From Shigella phage ESh2: DNA of 39,818 nt. The stretch lies in sequence record ON528716; one strand, written 5' to 3'. Shown here piece by piece: positions 1,924 through 39,699 of the stretch. Made by a program: the position numbers and the translations under genes. Numbering within the stretch: position 1 is the first letter of the stretch; the number at the start of each line of letters is the position of its first letter. The notes under the pieces are model-generated. The model was not told the origin of the DNA. It worked only from the letters and a program-made list of their open reading frames with translations, and made no database searches.

Positions 1924-1933
1924 GTGATAGGCC

Positions 1934-2417: not shown

Positions 2418-2548
2418 AACACTACGTTATGCCTATCCACACTTCCAATGGGGCGACCGTATGCACACCTGATGGGTTCGCAATGAAACAGCGAATCGAA
2501 CGCCTTAAGCGTGAACTGCGCATCAACCGCAAGATTAACAGAATCTAA
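2411..2548 (+). CDS. hypothetical small basic protein (45 aa)
   Basis: ATG 2411 overlapping preceding stop (ATGCTGA); [45 protein letters not shown]. Confidence 0.35.
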
Positions 2549-2567: not shown

Positions 2568-3647
2568 GTGAACATTACCGACATCATGAACGCTATCGAC
2601 ACAGTCAAAGAGCTTCCAATCTGTGAACTTGATAAGCGCCAAGGTATGCTTATCGACTTACTGGTTGAGATGGTCAACAGCGAAACGTGTGATGGCGAAA
2701 TGACCGAACTAAATCAGGCACTTGAGTATCAAGATTGGTGGACTACCTTGAAGTGTCTCACGACTGACGCAGGTTTTAAGATGCTCGGTAATGGTCACTT
2801 CTCGGCTGCTTATAGTCACCCGCTGCTGCCTAATAGAGTGATTAAGGTGGGCTTTAAGAAAGAGGACTCAGGCGCTGCGTATACCGCATTCTGTCGCATG
2901 TATCAGGGTCGCGCTGGTATCCCTAACGTCTACGATGTACAGCGCCACGCTGGCTGCTATACGGTTGTACTCGATGCGCTGAACGATTGCGACCGTTACG
3001 ATAACGATGAGCATTATAAGTATGCTGAGATTGCAAGTGACATCATTGACTACAAATCAGATGAGCACGATGGGTTAACTGGATGGGATGGCGAGTTCGT
3101 CGAGACTTGCAAGTTAATCCGCAAGTTCTTTGAGGGCATCGCTTCGTTCGACATGCACAGCGGGAACATTATGTTCAGCGATGATGATACACCATACATT
3201 ACCGACCCTGTATCGTTCTCGCAGAAGAAAGACGGTGGCTCATTCAGTATCGACCCTGAGGAACTCATTAAGGAAGTCGAGGAAGTCGCACGCCAGAAAG
3301 CAATCGACCGCGCTAAGGAACGTAAAGAACGTCATGTGGGTCGATTGGAGGCACGCAGATTCAAACGTCGCAACCGCAAGGCACGTAAAGCACACAAAGC
3401 TAAGAGCGAAAGAATGCTTGCTGCGTGGCGTATGGCTGAGCGCCAAGAACGACGTAACCATGAGGTAGCTGTAGATGTACTAGGTCGAACCAATAACGCC
3501 ATGCTCTGGGTTAACATGTTAGCTGGGGACTTTAAGGCACTTGAAGAACGAGTTGCAGCGCACTGGTTTAATGCTGACCGGATGGCTATCGCTAACGGTC
3601 TTCCACTCAACATCGATAAGAAACTTGATGCAATGCTAATGGGCTGA
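2568..3647 (+). CDS. 0.7: serine/threonine protein kinase / host transcription shutoff
   Basis: 359 aa from GTG at 2568 (SD ggag 8 nt upstream); near-identical to T7 gp0.7 from [11 protein letters not shown]... onward. Confidence 0.9.
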
Positions 3648-9431: not shown

Positions 9432-10130
9432 ATGGCTAAGAAGATTTTCACCTCTGCGCTGGGTACTGCTGAACCTTACGCTTACCTCTCCAAGCCGGAC
9501 TACGGTAACGAAGAGCGTGGCTTTGGGAACCCTCGCGGTGTCTACAAAGTTGACCTGACTATTCCCAACAAAGACCCGCGCTGTCAACGCATGGTCGATG
9601 AAATCGTGAAGTGTCACGAAGAGGCTTATGCTGCTGCCGTTGAGGAATACGAAGCGAATCCACCTGCTGTAGCTCGTGGTAAGAAACCGCTGAAACCGTA
9701 TGAAGGCGACATGCCATTCTTCGATAACGGTGACGGCACGACTACCTTTAAGTTCAAATGCTACGCGTCTTTCCAAGACAAGAAGACCAAAGAGACCAAG
9801 CACATCAATCTGGTTGTGGTTGACTCCAAGGGTAAGAAGATGGAAGACGTTCCGATTATCGGTGGTGGCTCTAAGCTGAAAGTCAAATACTCTCTGGTTC
9901 CGTACAAGTGGAACACTGCTGTAGGTGCAAGCGTTAAGCTGCAACTGGAATCCGTGATGCTGGTCGAACTGGCTACCTTTGGTGGCGGTGAAGACGATTG
10001 GGCTGACGAAGTTGAAGAGAACGGCTATGTTGCCTCTGGTTCTGCCAAAGCGAGCAAACCACGCGACGAAGAAAGCTGGGACGAAGACGACGAAGAGTCC
10101 GATGAAGTAGACGAAGACGGAGATTTCTAA
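9432..10130 (+). CDS. 2.5: single-stranded DNA-binding protein with acidic C-terminal tail
   Basis: 232 aa; MAKKIFTSALGTAEPYAYLSKPDYGNEERGF... ends DEDDEESDEVDEDGDF; matches T7 gp2.5. Confidence 0.97.
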   Translation: MAKKIFTSALGTAEPYAYLSKPDYGNEERGFGNPRGVYKVDLTIPNKDPRCQRMVDEIVKCHEEAYAAAVEEYEANPPAVARGKKPLKPYEGDMPFFDNGDGTTTFKFKCYASFQDKKTKETKHINLVVVDSKGKKMEDVPIIGGGSKLKVKYSLVPYKWNTAVGASVKLQLESVMLVELATFGGGEDDWADEVEENGYVASGSAKASKPRDEESWDEDDEESDEVDEDGDF

Positions 10131-10586
10131 GTGGCTGGCGCATACGCTGCGCGTGGTATCAGAAAGGTCGGGACATTCCGTTCCGGCCTAGAAGATAAGG
10201 TCTCTAAGCAGCTAGAGAGTAAAGGTATACAGTTTGACTACGAGCAGTGGAAGATTCCATACGTAGTCCCTGCGAGTAATCATACCTATTGTCCAGATTT
10301 TCTACTGCCCAATGGTATCTTTATCGAGACCAAAGGACTATGGGAAAGTGATGACCGCAAGAAGCACCTACTTATTCGCGAGCAGATGCCTGAGCTAGAT
10401 ATACGACTTGTGTTCTCAAGCTCCCGAACAAAGCTCTACAAAGGGTCTCCAACGTCCTATGCAGAATTTTGTGAAAAGCACGGCATCAAGTTTGCTGATA
10501 AGCTGATTCCAGTTGAGTGGCTCAAAGAGCCTAAACGGGAGGTGCCATTCGATAAGCTCAAACAGTCAAAAGGAGCTAAGAAGTGA
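10131..10586 (+). CDS. 3: endonuclease I (Holliday junction resolvase)
   Basis: 151 aa from GTG at 10131 immediately after the 2.5 stop; MAGAYAARGIRKVGTFRSGLEDKVSKQLESKG...PDFLLPNGIFIETKG matches T7 gp3. Confidence 0.9.
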   Translation: MAGAYAARGIRKVGTFRSGLEDKVSKQLESKGIQFDYEQWKIPYVVPASNHTYCPDFLLPNGIFIETKGLWESDDRKKHLLIREQMPELDIRLVFSSSRTKLYKGSPTSYAEFCEKHGIKFADKLIPVEWLKEPKREVPFDKLKQSKGAKK

Positions 10587-11041
10587 TTCATCCAAAACTC
10601 TTGATAGAGCCGACCGATTCCTGTATTGAATGGACAGGCGCGTTCCACAAGAACGGGTACGGAGTAATCTCTTTGAATCGCAAAGTAGCTGCCGAACTAG
10701 GAATACCTAGGGTGCAATTTGTACACAGGGCAAGCTACATGCAGCATAAAGGAACTATAGGTGATGGACTTGTTGTTCGTCACCTGTGTCACAACAGAAA
10801 GTGTTTCAACCCAGCTCACTTGGAAGTCGGCACTCAGTACGATAACTTCGAAGATAGTGTTAAGGTTGGTCGCAACAAACGTAAACTGCTTGATGAGGAC
10901 GTTAAATCAATTAGAGAGTCCACAATGAGTAACCGCAAGTTAGCCAAGCTATACGGTGTTAGCTCTACAACGATCTTCCACATCAAGCACAACAACAAGT
11001 GGAGGAATTTAAATGGCACGAGTACAATTCAAACAGCGTGA
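10583..11041 (+). CDS. HNH homing endonuclease (free-standing), inserted between genes 3 and 3.5
   Basis: 152 aa from GTG 10583 (SD aggag 7 nt upstream); motifs EWTGAFHKNGYG, HRASY, RHLCHNRKCFNPAHLEVGTQYDN; C-terminal region SNRKLAKLYGVSSTTIFHI resembles a helix-turn-helix. Confidence 0.8.
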   Translation: MIHPKLLIEPTDSCIEWTGAFHKNGYGVISLNRKVAAELGIPRVQFVHRASYMQHKGTIGDGLVVRHLCHNRKCFNPAHLEVGTQYDNFEDSVKVGRNKRKLLDEDVKSIRESTMSNRKLAKLYGVSSTTIFHIKHNNKWRNLNGTSTIQTA

Positions 11042-13860: not shown

Positions 13861-14292
13861 ATGCGTGACCCTAAAGTTATCCAAGCAGAAATCGCTAAGT
13901 TGGAAGCTGAACTGGAGGACGTTAAGTACCATGAGGCCAAGACTCGCTCCGCTGTTCACATCTTGAAGAACTTAGGTTGGACCTGGACAAGACAGACTGG
14001 CTGGAAGAAGCCAAAGACAGTCTGGCTGGAAGAAACAGAAGTTAACAAGCTGAGCCACAATGTGTTCTATAAGGACACTATGACCCGCATCAAGGCTGGT
14101 GATTGGGTTAAGGTTGACATGGGAGTTGTTGGTGGGTAGGGCTACGTCCGCTCAGTTGGTGGCAAATATGCACAAGTGTCATACATCACAGGTGTTACTC
14201 CACGCGGTGCAATCGTTGCCGATAAGACCAGCATGATTCACACAGGTTTCTTGACAGTCGTTTCATACGAAGAGATTGTTAAGTCACGATAA
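13861..14292 (+). pseudogene. 4.7: gene 4.7 interrupted by an in-frame amber (TAG) codon at 14137-14139; truncated product 92 aa (13861..14139)
   Basis: Reading frame continues after the TAG for 50 more sense codons (GYVRSVGGKYAQVSYITGVTPRGAIVADKTSMIHTGFLTVVSYEEIVKSR) that match the T7 gp4.7 C-terminus; T7 has TAT (Tyr) where this window has TAG. Confidence 0.8.
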
Positions 14293-17112: not shown

Positions 17113-18001
17113 CCTTAAACAATTCTATGAGTTACGTGAAGGTTGTGACGACAAAGGTATCCTTGTGATGGACGGTGACTGGCTGGTCTTCCAAGCGATG
17201 AGTGCCGCTGAGTTTGATGCCTCATGGGAGGAAGAGATTTGGCACCGCTGCTGTGACCACGCTAAGGCCCGTCAGATTCTTGAGGATTCCATTAAGTCCT
17301 ACGAGACACGCAAGAAGGCTTGGATAGGCGCTCCGATTGTCCTTGCGTTCACCGATAGTGTTAACTGGCGTAAAGAACTGGTTGACCCGAACTACAAGGC
17401 TAACCGTAAGGCAACTAAGAAACCTGTAGGTTACTTTGAGTTCCTTGATGCTCTCTTTGAGCGCGAAGAGTTCTATTGCATCCGTGAGCCTATGCTTGAG
17501 GGTGATGACGTTATGGGAGTTATTGCTTCCAATCCGTCTGCATTTGGTGCCCGTAAGGCTGTAATCATCTCGTGCGATAAGGACTTTAAGACCATCCCTA
17601 ACTGTGACTTCTTGTGGTGTACCACTGGTAACATCCTGACTCAGACCGAAGAGTCCGCTGACTGGTGGCACCTCTTCCAGACAATCAAAGGTGACATCAC
17701 AGATGGTTACTCAGGGATTGCCGGATGGGGTGATACCGCAGAGGACTTCTTGAATAACCCGTTCATAGTCGAGCCTAAAACGTCTGTGCTTAAGTCTGGT
17801 AAGAACAAAGGCAAAGAGGTTACTAAATGGGTTAAACGTGACCCTGAGCCTCATGAGACGCTTTGGGACTGCATTAAGTCCATTGGTGCTAAGGCCGGTA
17901 TGACCGAAGAGGATATTATCAAGCAGGGCCAGATGGCACGCATCCTGCGGTTCAACGAGTACAACTTTATCGACAAGGAGATTTACCTGTGGAGGCCGTA
18001 G
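17099..18001 (+). CDS. 6: 5'-3' exonuclease
   Basis: 300 aa; MALLDLKQFYELREGCDDKGILVMDGDWLVF... matches T7 gp6. Confidence 0.98.
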   Translation: MALLDLKQFYELREGCDDKGILVMDGDWLVFQAMSAAEFDASWEEEIWHRCCDHAKARQILEDSIKSYETRKKAWIGAPIVLAFTDSVNWRKELVDPNYKANRKATKKPVGYFEFLDALFEREEFYCIREPMLEGDDVMGVIASNPSAFGARKAVIISCDKDFKTIPNCDFLWCTTGNILTQTEESADWWHLFQTIKGDITDGYSGIAGWGDTAEDFLNNPFIVEPKTSVLKSGKNKGKEVTKWVKRDPEPHETLWDCIKSIGAKAGMTEEDIIKQGQMARILRFNEYNFIDKEIYLWRP

Positions 18002-18102
18002 CGTATATTGGCATTGGTCTTTGTGTTCTCGGAATGGGCCTCATTGCATGGGGCATTTGGGACTTAGCCAGAATAATCAAGTCGTTACACGAAACTAAGT
18101 GA
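17989..18102 (+). CDS. 6.3: gene 6.3 small protein (37 aa)
   Basis: GTG start with SD aaggag 8 nt upstream; MEAVAYIGIGLCVLGMGLIAWGIWDLARIIKSLHETK; length matches T7 gp6.3; overlaps end of gene 6. Confidence 0.5.
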   Translation: MEAVAYIGIGLCVLGMGLIAWGIWDLARIIKSLHETK

Positions 18103-19128: not shown

Positions 19129-19449
19129 ATGGGTAAGAAAGTCAAGAAGGTAGTTAAGAAAGTAACTAAGCCCGTTGAGAAAGCCGTAAAGAAAGTTACC
19201 AAGGAAGTGACTCGTCCTATTAAACAGGTTGCTGGTGCGCTGGCGGGTGGTGCTGGTGAAGCACAAGTAGTTGAAGTTCCACAACCAACAGCTGCTGCTA
19301 CTCCTGCTGCACAAATTGTTGACGTACCTGAGAAAGAGGTTTCCACTGATGACGAAGCACAGACCGAAAGCGGACGCAAGAAAGCTCGTTCTGAAGGTAA
19401 GAAGTCCTTGAGTGTAGCCCGTAGCTCCGGTGGGGGTATAAATATATGA
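19129..19449 (+). CDS. 7.3: gene 7.3 tail-associated protein (Lys-rich N-terminus)
   Basis: 106 aa; MGKKVKKVVKKVTKPVEKAVKKVTKE... ending SVARSSGGGINI; matches T7 gp7.3 with a 7-aa PTAAATP insertion. Confidence 0.9.
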   Translation: MGKKVKKVVKKVTKPVEKAVKKVTKEVTRPIKQVAGALAGGAGEAQVVEVPQPTAAATPAAQIVDVPEKEVSTDDEAQTESGRKKARSEGKKSLSVARSSGGGINI

Positions 19450-19847
19450 CAGATTGTATCCTTCATACTGGTTGCACGACTAAAGGAGGGTACGGTCTCG
19501 TTGGTTATAAAGGTAAGACACAGCTGGCTCACAGGGTATCATACATCAAATCAAAGGGTGAGATACCGACTGGTATGGTCATAATGCATACCTGTGACAA
19601 CCCTCTGTGTATCAACCCTGAACATCTTGTAGCTGGAACTCAGCGTGATAACCGTATGGACTGTGTAACTAAAGGTAGAGCGAACGTATCCAGAGGTGAA
19701 GAGCATTATTGTGCCAAGCTCACTGAGGCCATTGTGCGTGAGATTCGTGCATCAAATTTAACCAACACTGAGTTGTCAGAAGTGTATGGCATCCATAGGA
19801 GAACCATTAGTGACGCTCGATGTGGTAAGACATGGAGACATATTTAA
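19446..19847 (+). CDS. 7.7: HNH homing endonuclease at the gene 7.7 position
   Basis: 133 aa; TKGGYGLVGYKGKTQLAHRVSY...HTCDNPLCINPEHLVAGTQRDN HNH motif; C-terminal NTELSEVYGIHRRTISD HTH-like; stop overlaps gene 8 start by 1 nt. Confidence 0.85.
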   Translation: MTDCILHTGCTTKGGYGLVGYKGKTQLAHRVSYIKSKGEIPTGMVIMHTCDNPLCINPEHLVAGTQRDNRMDCVTKGRANVSRGEEHYCAKLTEAIVREIRASNLTNTELSEVYGIHRRTISDARCGKTWRHI

Positions 19848-30199: not shown

Positions 30200-30616
30200 A
30201 TGAGTATCGTGGAGCGCATTAGGAATGATTCAATTGTTGATGACAATGGTTGTTGGCTCCCTAAGAGACCAATCAAAGGTTATCGTCACATTAGGATTGA
30301 TGGTGTGCTCCAACGTGCTCACAGGGTGATAGTGGGTGCTGGGAAGGATGACGTTGTATTACACCTGTGTGATGTACCCAGTTGTTGTAACCCTGAGCAT
30401 CTCCGAATAGGCACTCAATCAGACAACATGGTTGACATGCAATCTAAGCATAGACATCCGGGACGTAAATTGAGTGACGAGGATGTAATCTACATACTAA
30501 ACTCTGATGCCTCAGGCTATAGTCTAGCCAAGAAATTCAAAGTAACCAAAGAAGTAATCTATAGAATACGAAAAGGAGAGTACTATGGGCGTTTACGACA
30601 AGTCGAAACCAAGTGA
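30200..30616 (+). CDS. HNH homing endonuclease inserted between genes 15 and 16
   Basis: 138 aa; SD taaggagg; DDNGCWLPKRPIKGYRHI...AHRVIV...HLCDVPSCCNPEHLRIGTQSDN HNH motif; C-terminal SGYSLAKKFKVTKEVIYRIRKG HTH-like; 3' end overlaps gene 16 start by 32 nt. Confidence 0.85.
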   Translation: MSIVERIRNDSIVDDNGCWLPKRPIKGYRHIRIDGVLQRAHRVIVGAGKDDVVLHLCDVPSCCNPEHLRIGTQSDNMVDMQSKHRHPGRKLSDEDVIYILNSDASGYSLAKKFKVTKEVIYRIRKGEYYGRLRQVETK

Positions 30617-34613: not shown

Positions 34614-36311
34614 ATGGCTAACGTAATTAAAACCGTTTTGACTTACCAGTTAGATGGCTCCAATCGTGATTTTAATATCCGGTTTGAGTATCTAGCCCGT
34701 AAGTTCGTAGTGGTAACTCTTATTGGGGTAGACCGTAAGGTCCTTACGATTAATACAGACTACCGTTTTGCTACTCGCACCACTATCTCATTGACCAAGG
34801 CTTGGGGACCAGCGGATGGCTACACTACCATCGAGTTACGTCGAGTAACCTCCACGACCGACCGATTGGTTGATTTTACGGACGGCTCAATCCTCCGCGC
34901 GTATGACCTTAACGTCGCTCAGATTCAAACGATGCACGTAGCGGAAGAGGCCCGTGACCTAACTGCCGATACTATCGGTGTCAACAACGATGGTCACTTG
35001 GATGCGCGTGGTCGTCGAATTGTGAACCTAGCGAACGCTGTGGATGACCGTGATGCTGTTCCGTTTGGTCAACTTAAGACCATGAACCAGAACTCATGGC
35101 AAGCTCGTAATGAAGCCTTACAGTTCCGCAATGAGGCTGAGACTTTCCGTAACCAAGCGGAGGGCTTTAAGAATGAGTCCAGCACGAACGCAACGAATAC
35201 CAATCAATGGCGCATTGAGGCTGAGGGGTTCCGTAATGAGGCTGAACAGTTCAAGAACACTGCGACACAACAGGCTACCGCTGCTGGGAACTCTGCTGCT
35301 GCTGCTCACCAATCGGAGATTAACGCCGAGAACTCAGCGACTGACTCTGCTAGCTCTGCTCATTTAGCAGAACAGCAAGCTGACCGTGCTGAGCGCGAAG
35401 CAGACAAGTTGGGTAACTGGAATGCTCTTGCTGGAGCTATTGACCATGTTGACGGTACTCGTGTGTTCTGGAAAGGCGAGCAACATTCTGATGGCAGACT
35501 ATATCTAACCACTAATGGATTCGATATTGGGCAGTATCAACAGTTCTTTGGTGGTGTTACTAACCGTTATTCAGTAATGGAGTGGGGTGATAAGTACGGC
35601 TGGCATTTGTACTCGGAGCGTCAAACCGAGGGTGGTACGACAACATTGAACCTTCGAGGACATATGACAGCAAATGGTAACGTCCGCGCTGCTGGTAACT
35701 CCTATACGAATAACCTCTTTGAGATGGACCGAGAGCAGCATTGGCCCGGTCGTGGTGCGTTTGCGAACCAGTATGCGGACAGGGCTGCACCATTTACCAA
35801 GACTGGTCGTTATCAGGCACCTAACGGGTACTCAGAGTATTATCCTATTGTTAAAGCCTATGTTGAAACACAAGGTTACGGGTATGGTACGGTTGCTACC
35901 TTCGGTATGCTAACCTCTGGAGGTGGTAGGTTTGCTAATGGGTGTGTCCACGTTATTGGGGATAATGGTGTTAATGGTCTCTGGCAGTTCGACCCTAACA
36001 CTGGTGGTTTCCTATCACGCGGAGATGTACATGTTGGAGATGGCGGTGTCGTCTACCAGAACGGTGACATATATGGTACGGTGTGGGGTGGTCGGCCTAT
36101 TTCACAGTGGTTAGGGGACCAGACCGTAAACCACATTGCTATGGGTGGTGTTAACTTTGCTCAGCTATGGAATAGTTACGGTATAGGAGATGGTGGTGGT
36201 AAGGTGATCACAGGAATCACCAACAGTAACGCTGATGCGCTAGTCGATGGATGCCAGTGGCGAGTAATGCAGTATGTCCGCAACAACGGACAGTGTTTCA
36301 ATATTTATTAA
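34614..36311 (+). CDS. 17: tail fibre protein; T7-like N-terminal and shaft region (aa 1 to about 326), divergent C-terminal receptor-binding region (aa about 327-565)
   Basis: 565 aa; MANVIKTVLTYQLDGSNRDFNIRFEYLARKF... matches T7 gp17 through ...GGVTNRYSVMEWGD, then diverges into a Gly-rich sequence unlike the T7 tip domain as recalled. Confidence 0.95.
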   Translation: MANVIKTVLTYQLDGSNRDFNIRFEYLARKFVVVTLIGVDRKVLTINTDYRFATRTTISLTKAWGPADGYTTIELRRVTSTTDRLVDFTDGSILRAYDLNVAQIQTMHVAEEARDLTADTIGVNNDGHLDARGRRIVNLANAVDDRDAVPFGQLKTMNQNSWQARNEALQFRNEAETFRNQAEGFKNESSTNATNTNQWRIEAEGFRNEAEQFKNTATQQATAAGNSAAAAHQSEINAENSATDSASSAHLAEQQADRAEREADKLGNWNALAGAIDHVDGTRVFWKGEQHSDGRLYLTTNGFDIGQYQQFFGGVTNRYSVMEWGDKYGWHLYSERQTEGGTTTLNLRGHMTANGNVRAAGNSYTNNLFEMDREQHWPGRGAFANQYADRAAPFTKTGRYQAPNGYSEYYPIVKAYVETQGYGYGTVATFGMLTSGGGRFANGCVHVIGDNGVNGLWQFDPNTGGFLSRGDVHVGDGGVVYQNGDIYGTVWGGRPISQWLGDQTVNHIAMGGVNFAQLWNSYGIGDGGGKVITGITNSNADALVDGCQWRVMQYVRNNGQCFNIY

Positions 36312-36326
36312 TAGGAGGAGTATGGT

Positions 36327-36932
36327 ATGGGAACTTTACGTCACTATAAGAACTTCGTAAACTATGTACCAGAGCGTACCAAAGATAATGCAGACCTTCT
36401 AGACCACGGCGTTGGCTTCTCAAAGGACGAGAATGGGAATGACTGGTATGAACTGCGTAATACATTCCGTGAGGATACATGGAAACTTGTCTATGCCAAA
36501 GACGGTTCTGTAATTCAGTGTGAACAGGATGTTCAGGAGTTAGCCGTTCAGGGTTCTGCTGGTGTGGTTGAACTTGAGGAAATCCCTGCTGAATACTCTC
36601 GGTATAATATGATGCAGTGGTGGTGGGACGGCGAGAAGCTCACTTGGTATCCAAGATACTTTGAGAACCAGAAGGCTCGTCTAATCTCTATGGCCTCCAA
36701 GAAGATTGAGCAGTATGCTGACTTTATGGCGCTTGGGGAGGAGGGGCTAGAAGGCATCTTAAATGCGTGGCGAGCCTATCGCCTTGCTGTATATAAAGTG
36801 GACCTAAGTGTTCTGCCTTTCTATGACTGGCCTGAGAAGCCTGAGGACTTATTAACAACAACACACAAGGAAAGACGTGTAGTCCACGGAAGGACTCTTA
36901 CAAGGAGGACACGTGCTGTCTTTAGATTTTAA
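36327..36932 (+). CDS. putative tail-fibre assembly chaperone (lambda Tfa-like)
   Basis: 201 aa; SD aggagg 8 nt upstream of ATG; C-terminal signature NAWRAYRLAVYKVDLSVLPFYDWPEKPED resembles the W..YR..L..VD.S..P..WP..P motif of Tfa-family proteins; no gene at this position in T7. Confidence 0.65.
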   Translation: MGTLRHYKNFVNYVPERTKDNADLLDHGVGFSKDENGNDWYELRNTFREDTWKLVYAKDGSVIQCEQDVQELAVQGSAGVVELEEIPAEYSRYNMMQWWWDGEKLTWYPRYFENQKARLISMASKKIEQYADFMALGEEGLEGILNAWRAYRLAVYKVDLSVLPFYDWPEKPEDLLTTTHKERRVVHGRTLTRRTRAVFRF

Positions 36933-37116
36933 CAACGAGGTAGTTAAGGCTGCTCCGATTGTAGGGACGGGTGTAGCCGATGGTGCTGCCAGACTCTTTT
37001 GGGGACTTTCATTAAACGAGTGGTTCTACGTTGCCGCTATCGCCTATACAGTGGTTCAGATTGGTGCCAAGGTAGTCGATAAGATGATTGACTGGAAGAA
37101 AGCCAATAAGGAGTGA
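36913..37116 (+). CDS. 17.5: holin (class II)
   Basis: 67 aa; MLSLDFNNEVVKAAPIVGTGVADGAARLFWGLSLNEWFYVAAIAYTVVQIGAKVVDKMIDWKKANKE matches T7 gp17.5. Confidence 0.95.
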   Translation: MLSLDFNNEVVKAAPIVGTGVADGAARLFWGLSLNEWFYVAAIAYTVVQIGAKVVDKMIDWKKANKE

Positions 37117-37485: not shown

Positions 37486-37929
37486 ATGCTGGAATTTTTA
37501 CGTAAGCTAATCCCTTGGGTTCTAGCTGGGATGCTATTCGGATGGGGATGGCACCTTGGGTCAGACTCAATGGACGCTAAATGGAAACAGGAGGTACAGA
37601 ATGAGTACGTTAAGAGAGTTGAGGCTACGGCGAGCACTCAAAGAGCAATCAATGAAATATCGGCTAAGTATCAAGAAGACCTTGCCGCGCTGGAGGGGAG
37701 CACTGATAGGATTATTTCTGATTTGCGTAGCGACAATAAGCGGTTGCGCGTCAGAGTCAAAACTACCGGAACCTCCGATGGTCAGTGTGGATTCGAGCCT
37801 GATGGTAGAGCCGAACTTGACGACCGAGATGCTAAGCGTATTCTCGCAGTGACCCAGAAGGGTGACGCATGGATTCGTGCGTTACAGGATACTATTCGTG
37901 AACTACAACGTAAGCAGGAAATCAAGTAA
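37486..37929 (+). CDS. 18.5: i-spanin (Rz-like)
   Basis: 147 aa; MLEFLRKLIPWVLAGMLFGWGWHLGSDSMDAKWKQE... N-terminal TM; matches T7 gp18.5. Confidence 0.95.
   Translation: MLEFLRKLIPWVLAGMLFGWGWHLGSDSMDAKWKQEVQNEYVKRVEATASTQRAINEISAKYQEDLAALEGSTDRIISDLRSDNKRLRVRVKTTGTSDGQCGFEPDGRAELDDRDAKRILAVTQKGDAWIRALQDTIRELQRKQEIK
37601..37852 (+). CDS. 18.7: o-spanin (Rz1-like lipoprotein) embedded in the +1 frame of 18.5
   Basis: 83 aa from ATG 37601 (SD ggagg); MSTLRELRLRRALKEQSMKYRLSIKKTLPRWRGALIGLFLICVATISGCASE... lipobox ISGC; matches T7 gp18.7. Confidence 0.85.
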   Translation: MSTLRELRLRRALKEQSMKYRLSIKKTLPRWRGALIGLFLICVATISGCASESKLPEPPMVSVDSSLMVEPNLTTEMLSVFSQ

Positions 37930-37938
37930 GGAGGCAAT

Positions 37939-39699
37939 GTGTCTACTCAAGCCAATCGTAATGCGCTCGTAGTGGCGCAACTGAAAGGAGACTTCGTGGC
38001 GTTCCTGTTCGTCTTATGGAAGGCGTTAAACCTTCCGGTGCCCACTAAGTGTCAGATTGACATGGCTAAGGTGCTGGCGAATGGGGACAACAAGAAGTTC
38101 ATCCTACAGGCTTTCCGTGGTATCGGTAAGTCGTTCATCACATGTGCGTTCGTTGTGTGGTCCTTATGGAGAGACCCTCAGTTGAAGATACTTATCGTAT
38201 CAGCCTCTAAGGAACGTGCAGACGCTAACTCCATCTTTATTAAGAACATCATTGACCTGCTGCCGTTCCTCGCTGAGTTAAAGCCAAGACCCGGACAGCG
38301 TGACTCTGTAATCAGCTTTGACGTTGGCCCAGCTAAGCCTGACCACTCTCCTAGTGTAAAATCGGTAGGTATCACTGGTCAGTTAACTGGTAGTCGTGCT
38401 GACATTATCATTGCGGATGACGTTGAGATTCCGTCTAACAGTGCGACTATGGGTGCCCGTGAGAAGCTATGGACTCTTGTTCAGGAGTTCGCTGCGTTAC
38501 TTAAACCGCTGCCGTCCTCTCGCGTTATCTACCTTGGTACGCCTCAGACAGAGATGACTCTCTATAAGGAACTTGAGGATAACCGTGGGTATACCACTAT
38601 CATCTGGCCTGCTCTGTACCCAAGGACGCGTGAAGAGAACCTCTATTACTCACAGCGTCTTGCTCCTATGTTACGCGCTGAGTACGATGAGAACCCTGAG
38701 GCACTAGCTGGGACTCCAACAGACCCTGTGCGCTTCGACCGTGATGACCTCCGTGAACGTGAGTTGGAATACGGTAAGGCTGGCTTCACATTACAGTTCA
38801 TGCTTAACCCGAACCTTAGTGATGCCGAGAAGTACCCTCTGAGGCTCCGTGACGCTATCGTAGCGGCCTTAGACTTAGAGAAGGCACCAATGCACTATCA
38901 GTGGCTTCCGAACCGTCAGAACATCATTGAGGACCTTCCTAACGTTGGCCTTAAGGGTGATGACCTTCATACGTATCACGATTGCTCCAACAACTCCGGT
39001 CAGTACCAACAGAAGATTCTGGTCATTGACCCCAGTGGTCGCGGTAAGGACGAAACAGGTTACGCTGTGTTGTACACCCTGAACGGTTACATCTACCTTA
39101 TGGAAGCTGGAGGTTTCCGTGATGGTTACTCCGATAAGACCCTTGAGTTGCTCGCTAAGAAAGCCAAGCAGTGGGGAGTCCAGACGGTTGTCTACGAGAG
39201 TAACTTCGGTGACGGTATGTTTGGTAAGGTGTTCAGTCCTATCCTCCTTAAACACCACAACTGTGCGATGGAAGAGATTCGCGCTCGTGGTATGAAAGAG
39301 ATGCGTATTTGTGATACCCTTGAGCCAGTCATGCAAACTCACCGCCTTGTCATTCGTGATGAGGTCATTAGGGCCGACTACCAGTCCGCTCGTGACGTAG
39401 ACGGTAAGCATGACGTTAAGTACTCGCTGTTCTACCAGATGACCCGTATCACTCGTGAGAAAGGCGCTCTGGCTCATGATGACCGATTGGATGCCCTTGC
39501 GTTAGGCATTGAGTATCTCCGCGAGTCCATGCAGTTGGATTCAGTTAAGGTCGAAGGTGAAGTACTTGCTGACTTCCTTGAGGAGCACATGATGCGTCCT
39601 ACAGTGTCTGCTGCCCACATCATTGAGATGTCTGTGGGAGGAGTTGATGTGTACTCTGAGGACGATGAGGGTTACGGTACGTCTTTCATTGAGTGGTGA
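37939..39699 (+). CDS. 19: terminase large subunit (DNA maturase B)
   Basis: 586 aa from GTG 37939 (SD aaggagg); [33 protein letters not shown]... Walker A-like GIGKS; matches T7 gp19. Confidence 0.98.

Follow-up and report, generated by a model that had tools for sequence, protein, structure and literature searches.

Six genes of Shigella phage ESh2 (0.7, 3, 3.3, 6.3, 17.5 and 19) very probably begin translation at GUG, led by a Shine–Dalgarno (SD) sequence, in the manner of ordinary bacterial genes. This reading is drawn from sequence comparison across the whole 39,818-nucleotide stretch of record ON528716, termed the window below. The six genes lie in the window as follows.

2568–3647, plus strand: gene 0.7 (protein kinase / host shut-off), GTG at 2568–2570, 359-aa ORF
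10131–10586, plus strand: gene 3 (endonuclease I), GTG at 10131–10133, 151-aa ORF
10583–11041, plus strand: gene 3.3 (HNH homing-endonuclease-like), GTG at 10583–10585, 152-aa ORF
17989–18102, plus strand: gene 6.3 (hydrophobic protein), GTG at 17989–17991, 37-aa ORF
36913–37116, plus strand: gene 17.5 (holin), GTG at 36913–36915
37939–39699, plus strand: gene 19 (large terminase), GTG at 37939–37941, 586-aa ORF

All six GTGs are preceded by an SD core, GGAG or GGAGG: GGAG at 2554–2557 (gene 0.7), 10119–10122 (gene 3), 10572–10575 (gene 3.3) and 17977–17980 (gene 6.3), GGAGG at 36904–36908 (gene 17.5), and a core at 37930 for gene 19. Aligned SD spacing is 9, 7, 6, 7, 4 and 4 nt for genes 0.7, 3, 3.3, 6.3, 17.5 and 19, the same range (4–9 nt) as in the ATG genes (n = 46). 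Contiguous matches of these SD sequences to TAAGGAGGT span 4–8 nt, and anti-SD duplex energies at the GTG starts run from -6.4 to -12.1 kcal/mol. The preliminary description of this DNA had named five of the sites (2568, 10131, 10583, 17989 and 37939) as GTGs with a well-spaced SD, and all five are present, spaced at 4–9 nt; its list was incomplete, omitting the holin gene 17.5 at 36913. In genes 3, 3.3, 6.3 and 19, no other start codon lies between the upstream in-frame stop and the GTG. Moreover, T7 proteins align from residue 1 at the GTG positions (from residue 2 for gene 3) in tblastn searches. An ORF 5ʹ position, SD spacing and homologues that vary only among start codons characterize a canonical SD-led GUG site, and on the sequence level the six sites are of this kind.

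The window is a complete, circularly permuted Teseptimavirus (T7-like) genome, approximately 92% identical to T7, as its collinear T7 gene set and high identity demonstrate. A megablast search with its first 25 kb matched 968 phage records, the best of them Teseptimavirus genomes at 91–93% identity; T7 itself is 92.5% identical over 87% of that segment, and window position 542 is the counterpart of T7 position 1. When T7 CDS products were queried by tblastn, 51 of 56 found a place in the window, nearly all of them collinear, with identities of 62–100% among the collinear matches. The same searches found T7 genes 0.3 (ocr), 0.4, 2.8, 3.8 and 5.3 absent from the window, the 2.8 and 7.7 queries matching only HNH paralogues. 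The differences from T7 are mosaic, and they include three HNH genes in the window (10583–11041, 19446–19847 and 30200–30616). In place of T7 gene 0.3 (ocr) stands a T3-type S-adenosylmethionine (SAM) lyase gene (1465–1923; PF23780, E = 2.9e-43). The T7 match of tail fibre gene 17 (34614–36311) is limited to residues 1–366, the C-terminus being non-T7, and downstream of gene 17 lies a tail-fibre assembly gene (201 aa, Caudo_TAP; ORF201, 36327–36932) that T7 does not have. Gene 4.7 (13861–14289) carries an in-frame stop at codon 93 (14137–14139), a tyrosine codon in T7, and homology to T7 gp4.7 goes on past it; the stop reflects a sequencing error or, alternatively, a nonsense mutation in a gene that is not essential.

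Comparison of start codons among relatives argues for initiation at the GTGs. IMG/VR loci around homologues of genes 0.7, 3, 6 and 19 were fetched, and the codon at the homologous position was read in each. At the gene 0.7 position, 8 of 79 IMG/VR relatives have GTG and 71 have ATG. The gene 3 position holds GTG in 15 and ATG in 13 of 29 relatives, one alignment ending short of the start; the gene 6.3 position holds GTG in 16 and ATG in 57 of 73; and the gene 17.5 position holds GTG in 3 and ATG in 67. Gene 19 has GTG in most close relatives, ATG in L247, L253 and the group L261–L270, and TTG in L318. For gene 3.3, GTG is found in phiA1122, Yanou, KFSA9 and JacobBurckhardt and ATG in SALSA and P151, while KpV767 and Rambo have an ATG within one codon of the homologous position. 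In alignments that extend in register to the start, the other valine codons, GTA, GTC and GTT, never occur at the homologous position. In a few gene 19 relatives (e.g., L243, L248 and L251), a different N-terminus is encoded from an upstream ATG, and the aligned codon is internal (GTA or ACA). A position that holds only ATG, GTG or TTG in relatives thus behaves as an initiation codon. The preliminary description had called the starts homology-supported, and this is borne out by the T7 proteins and the Pfam models Phage_endo_I and DUF5516, which align from the N-terminus, and by relatives that have only start codons at these positions.

The motif alone is no evidence for these starts. GGAG-N4-10-GTG is not enriched, with 49 occurrences in the window (both strands) vs 37.6 +/- 6.7 in shuffles, 7 of 100 of which reach 49. 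Support for the six sites therefore comes from ORF context and homology and not from the co-occurrence of an SD core and a GTG. Folding of the six 70-nt initiation regions in a search for regulatory hairpins yielded none more stable than shuffled sequence (z from +0.25 to +1.84).

One or more of the genes might instead start at a downstream in-frame ATG or TTG, the GTG being merely internal or untranslated. Such codons do exist: ATG 2586 in gene 0.7, TTG 10601 or ATG 10739 in gene 3.3, ATG 18034 in gene 6.3 and ATG 38062 in gene 19, the four ATGs being the first in frame in their genes. ATG 2586, six codons past the GTG of gene 0.7, encodes a Met7 that is kept in most close relatives, which fits a downstream start; in L013, however, this residue is threonine, and in the more distant relatives shown (L015–L020) it is glutamine. 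Nor is any of the candidates preceded by an SD core in the right window, and relatives have ATG exactly at the GTG position. Initiation at 18034 would leave 22 aa of gene 6.3, with 15 of 37 residues lost, and initiation at 38062 would cost gene 19 a stretch of 41 residues with 99% conservation relative to T7. For gene 3 no alternative exists, its first 80 codons containing no other ATG, GTG or TTG. A downstream start is accordingly very unlikely, and initiation at the GTGs is preferred.

Of the six SD sites, that of gene 0.7 is the weakest: its core has 4 bases and its spacer is the longest (10 nt, for an aligned spacing of 9), exceeding those of genes 2.5 and 1.3 by one base. T7 gp0.7 aligns over residues 1–359 from exactly 2568, at 91% identity (tblastn), and the T7 gene has ATG at the codon homologous to the ESh2 GTG. 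Despite this identity to T7 gp0.7, the gene 0.7 protein has no Pfam match at E < 0.01. The longest ORF for the gene extends further upstream, to another in-frame codon.

2511–2513, plus strand: upstream in-frame GTG, rejected as the start of gene 0.7

If gene 0.7 began there, a 378-aa protein would be made from a frame overlapping gene 0.6, and the ORF is indeed open back to 2511. The 2511 codon, however, has no SD upstream and lies inside the 0.6A-like ORF at 2411–2548, so that the extension is another frame of that gene. The stretch from 2511 to 2568 cannot be aligned in frame among relatives: it differs through indels of non-triplet length, and T7-type relatives have unrelated sequence there. 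All homologues begin at the codon equivalent to 2568. In an alignment of 14 sequences around the 0.7 start, non-triplet indels are found upstream, and the sequence is free of indels and highly conserved from the R-T-G codon on; against the GTG, two relatives (L009 and L011) have an in-frame ATG two codons 5ʹ of their 0.7 GTG. A start at 2511 is thus extremely improbable, leaving GTG 2568 as the start of gene 0.7. The preliminary description had given this upstream codon as an ATG, which is mistaken, since the codon is GTG, and had correctly observed that the ORF from 2511 overlaps the preceding small ORF, which is the 0.6A-like one. Because 2511 is itself a GTG, the example illustrates longest-ORF overshoot and not an artefact of calling ATG only.

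Because a single A/G difference separates the two states, and because ATG is found in most relatives for genes 0.7 and 17.5, the GTGs could also be taken for sequencing or assembly errors, or for recent mutations of ATG without biological meaning. Against this, GTG recurs in independently sequenced genomes, in 8 for gene 0.7, 15 for gene 3, 16 for gene 6.3 and at least 11 for gene 19. The 8 relatives with the GTG type of gene 0.7 all fall among 13 close Teseptimavirus relatives, and their GTG is always linked to a TGGAGAA-type upstream region, whereas AAGGACACA, or a close variant of it, stands upstream in the ATG members of the 13. Error or meaningless recent mutation is hardly credible given this recurrence and the association with a distinct SD haplotype, and the six GTGs are better read as genuine starts.

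The remaining genes meet their upstream neighbors closely. The GTG of gene 3 directly adjoins the TAA of gene 2.5 (TAAGTG), which places an in-frame stop immediately upstream, and residues 1–150 of its product correspond to positions 1–149 of the Pfam Phage_endo_I model. ATG forms of gene 3 in relatives have TAA-ATG or overlapping TAATG junctions. Gene 6.3 starts within the final 13 nt of gene 6, at a position identical to the GTG annotated for T7 6.3, and the Pfam model DUF5516 aligns to its residues 1–37. In the relatives printed in the alignment, the 6.3 ORF is 35–41 aa long except in L162, L172 and L176, where it has 25–27 aa; 6.3 is therefore not under uniform constraint. The A/G difference at its start is synonymous in the gene 6 frame (CTA/CTG, both Leu). 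Gene 17.5 starts within the final 20 nt of ORF201, and its GGAGG ends four bases before the GTG; T7 gp17.5 aligns over residues 1–67 at 92.5% identity (tblastn), and T7 likewise has GTG there. The SD of gene 19, TAAGGAGG (37927–37934), includes the gene 18.5 stop codon, and an in-frame stop for gene 19 lies at 37927. T7 gp19 aligns over residues 1–586 at 99% identity (tblastn), with GTG at the same codon in T7.

The GTG starts are genuine and conventional, and records of T7 and related phages carry them already. In the curated entry for T7 (V01146 / NC_001604), GTG is given for 2.8, 6.3, 7.7, 17.5, 19 and 19.2, or 6 of 57 annotated starts, a frequency similar to that in ESh2; T7 and ESh2 share their gene order, and for 6.3, 17.5 and 19, the GTGs stand at identical positions, in near-identical SD contexts. 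In Yersinia phage phiA1122 (AY247822), which has no gene 0.7, GTG is annotated for 3, 3.3, 6.3, 7.7, 19 and 19.2, and in Escherichia phage JacobBurckhardt (MZ501078, BASEL) for 0.7, 3, 3.3, 6.3 and 19. Like ESh2, both have gene 3 as TAA-GTG after 2.5 and gene 3.3 as a GTGA overlap, and the context of gene 0.7 in JacobBurckhardt, GGAGAATACATAAA-GTG, is the same as in ESh2. DNA identity to ESh2 in the gene 3.3 region is 99% for JacobBurckhardt and 92.7% for phiA1122. Unlike ESh2, both phages start holin gene 17.5 with ATG. The RefSeq genomes 3A_8767 and CICC 80001 have gene 0.7 annotated at GTG. Published annotation of T7-like phages has routinely allowed ATG, GTG, CTG and TTG (PMC4283147). A literature search for experimentally determined N-termini of T7 proteins with GTG starts found nothing directly relevant. 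The preliminary description had warned that automated ATG-only calling would misplace or miss such genes; a caller of this kind would indeed truncate them, but the practical concern is not borne out, as public records already use these GTGs.

Two further GTGs in the window were considered as starts and set aside. The first directly follows the SAM lyase stop and served as a negative control.

1924–1926, plus strand: GTG after the SAM lyase stop, rejected as a start

As a seventh GTG start, it would open a 90-codon ORF; it has no SD and lies within a repeat resembling an RNase III site, and ATG 1996, with an AGGA core, is likely the credible start there. The RNase III-site-like sequence (AAGGTCGCTC...GTGGCCTT.ATGATTATCA) is present in two copies, at 1924–1995 and at about 2230–2282, the duplicate sitting upstream of gene 0.5. 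A GTG start annotated in JacobBurckhardt in a similar context may be the same kind of overshoot. The second is gene 19.2 (38585–38707), annotated in T7 with a GTG (38585 in the window) and nested in gene 19. It was not counted, because its frame is broken here after 40 codons, which argues against a functional 19.2 gene.

In E. coli, GUG is the start codon of approximately 14% of genes and initiates at 10–100% of the AUG rate, and the N-terminal residue has been confirmed to be methionine (10.1101/063800). With GTG starts in 6 of 52 genes (11.5%), ESh2 does not differ from this 14% (binomial p = 0.84), and its non-AUG initiation, likewise SD-led with GUG read by the initiator tRNA, shows nothing distinctive in comparison with the E. 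coli type. SD-led initiation at GUG by fMet-tRNA is a standard mechanism. At the six sites, the 3ʹ end of the 16S rRNA would pair with GGAG or GGAGG 4–10 nt upstream and so position the 30S subunit, and the initiator fMet-tRNA would read GUG by first-position wobble, so the proteins would start with methionine and not valine. We infer that initiation at the six GTGs proceeds at a somewhat lower rate than at AUG.

The position of the GTGs relative to upstream genes suggests how a weaker codon might be accommodated. Measured from the upstream stop codon, the GTG starts lie at -20 to +19 nt (median -2) and the ATG starts at a median of +20 nt (n = 6 vs 43; one-sided Mann-Whitney p = 0.018), a post hoc trend over six sites in a genome with little space between most of its genes. 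As each of the six GTGs has an upstream stop no more than 20 nt away, they are probably fed by ribosomes from the upstream genes. In such translational coupling, ribosomes ending the upstream gene would feed the nearby GTG start, offsetting the weaker codon and making it tolerable. A weaker start would also suit proteins made in low amounts, such as a homing endonuclease, a terminase, a holin or a small membrane peptide.

The GTG-initiated gene 3.3 belongs to a class of genes found at initiation sites in more than one place. Its GTG overlaps the gene 3 TGA (GTGA), with an in-frame stop at 10577, and at its 3ʹ end it runs past the start of gene 3.5 (11013). The preliminary description had called it an HNH gene with a GTG start; the start is retained, and its identity can be sharpened to gene 3.3 of phiA1122, whose gp3.3 is 97% identical. 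The protein matches HNH_3 (PF13392) at 40.7 bits (cutoff 24.8) and PF05551 at 28 (cutoff 27). Of 50,697 phage records, 18 have the gene, at coverage of at least 80%, at the 3/3.5 junction; T7 lacks it, as well as the HNH gene that ESh2 has between genes 15 and 16. By its predicted HNH domain and its sporadic presence at a fixed junction of otherwise collinear genomes, ESh2 3.3 is one of the homing-endonuclease-like genes of the T7 group, along with phiA1122 gp3.3 and T7 gp7.7 and gp2.8.

In three cases, the start region of an HNH gene and that of a neighboring gene differ between ESh2 and T7 in a corresponding way. The T7 HNH gene 2.8 starts at the same TAA-GTG that starts gene 3 in ESh2, while T7 gene 3 starts from a separate SD and a different ATG inside the 3ʹ end of 2.8; in pairwise alignment with T7, ESh2 gene 3 is homologous again only from about codon 9. 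ESh2 gene 3.3 has its SD within the 3ʹ end of gene 3, where the SD of 3.5 lies in T7, and 3.5 is supplied with a new SD by 3.3. At 30200–30616, the HNH gene begins with the SD and ATG of T7 gene 16, with 100% identity through the ATG in pairwise alignment. After this ATG comes an insertion of approximately 385 nt relative to T7, and gene 16 receives a new SD and an ATG at 30585, with an altered N-terminus. This gene has no close relative among the 50,697 phage records; its best matches, in six Klebsiella phages, are 67–68% identical over 51–63% of its length, and in phi1_146022, the one Klebsiella match examined, the homologue occupies the same 15/16 junction. Neither phiA1122 nor JacobBurckhardt has an HNH gene there.

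The three cases fit insertion of homing-endonuclease genes at start codons, together with co-converted flanks. An inserting HNH gene would take over the SD and start codon of the resident gene and would supply a replacement SD, start codon and altered N-terminal coding sequence for the gene it displaces. The broader proposition that GTG starts in T7-group phages are confined to coupled positions, and that HNH genes spread by inserting exactly at initiation codons, is unlikely.

For ESh2, the consequence of the six GTG starts is one of annotation quality only: genes 0.7, 3, 3.3, 6.3, 17.5 and 19 should start at GTG, and the longest-ORF starts at 2511 and 1924 are unsuitable for annotation. They bring no new biology, since the curated T7 record (V01146) already has GUG initiation for phages of the T7 group and current database entries repeat it. 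The apparent capture of initiation sites by homing-endonuclease genes is a modest lead for research on phage mobile elements and, if it were a general rule, would predict the insertion sites of HNH elements and the determinants of immunity to their cleavage.
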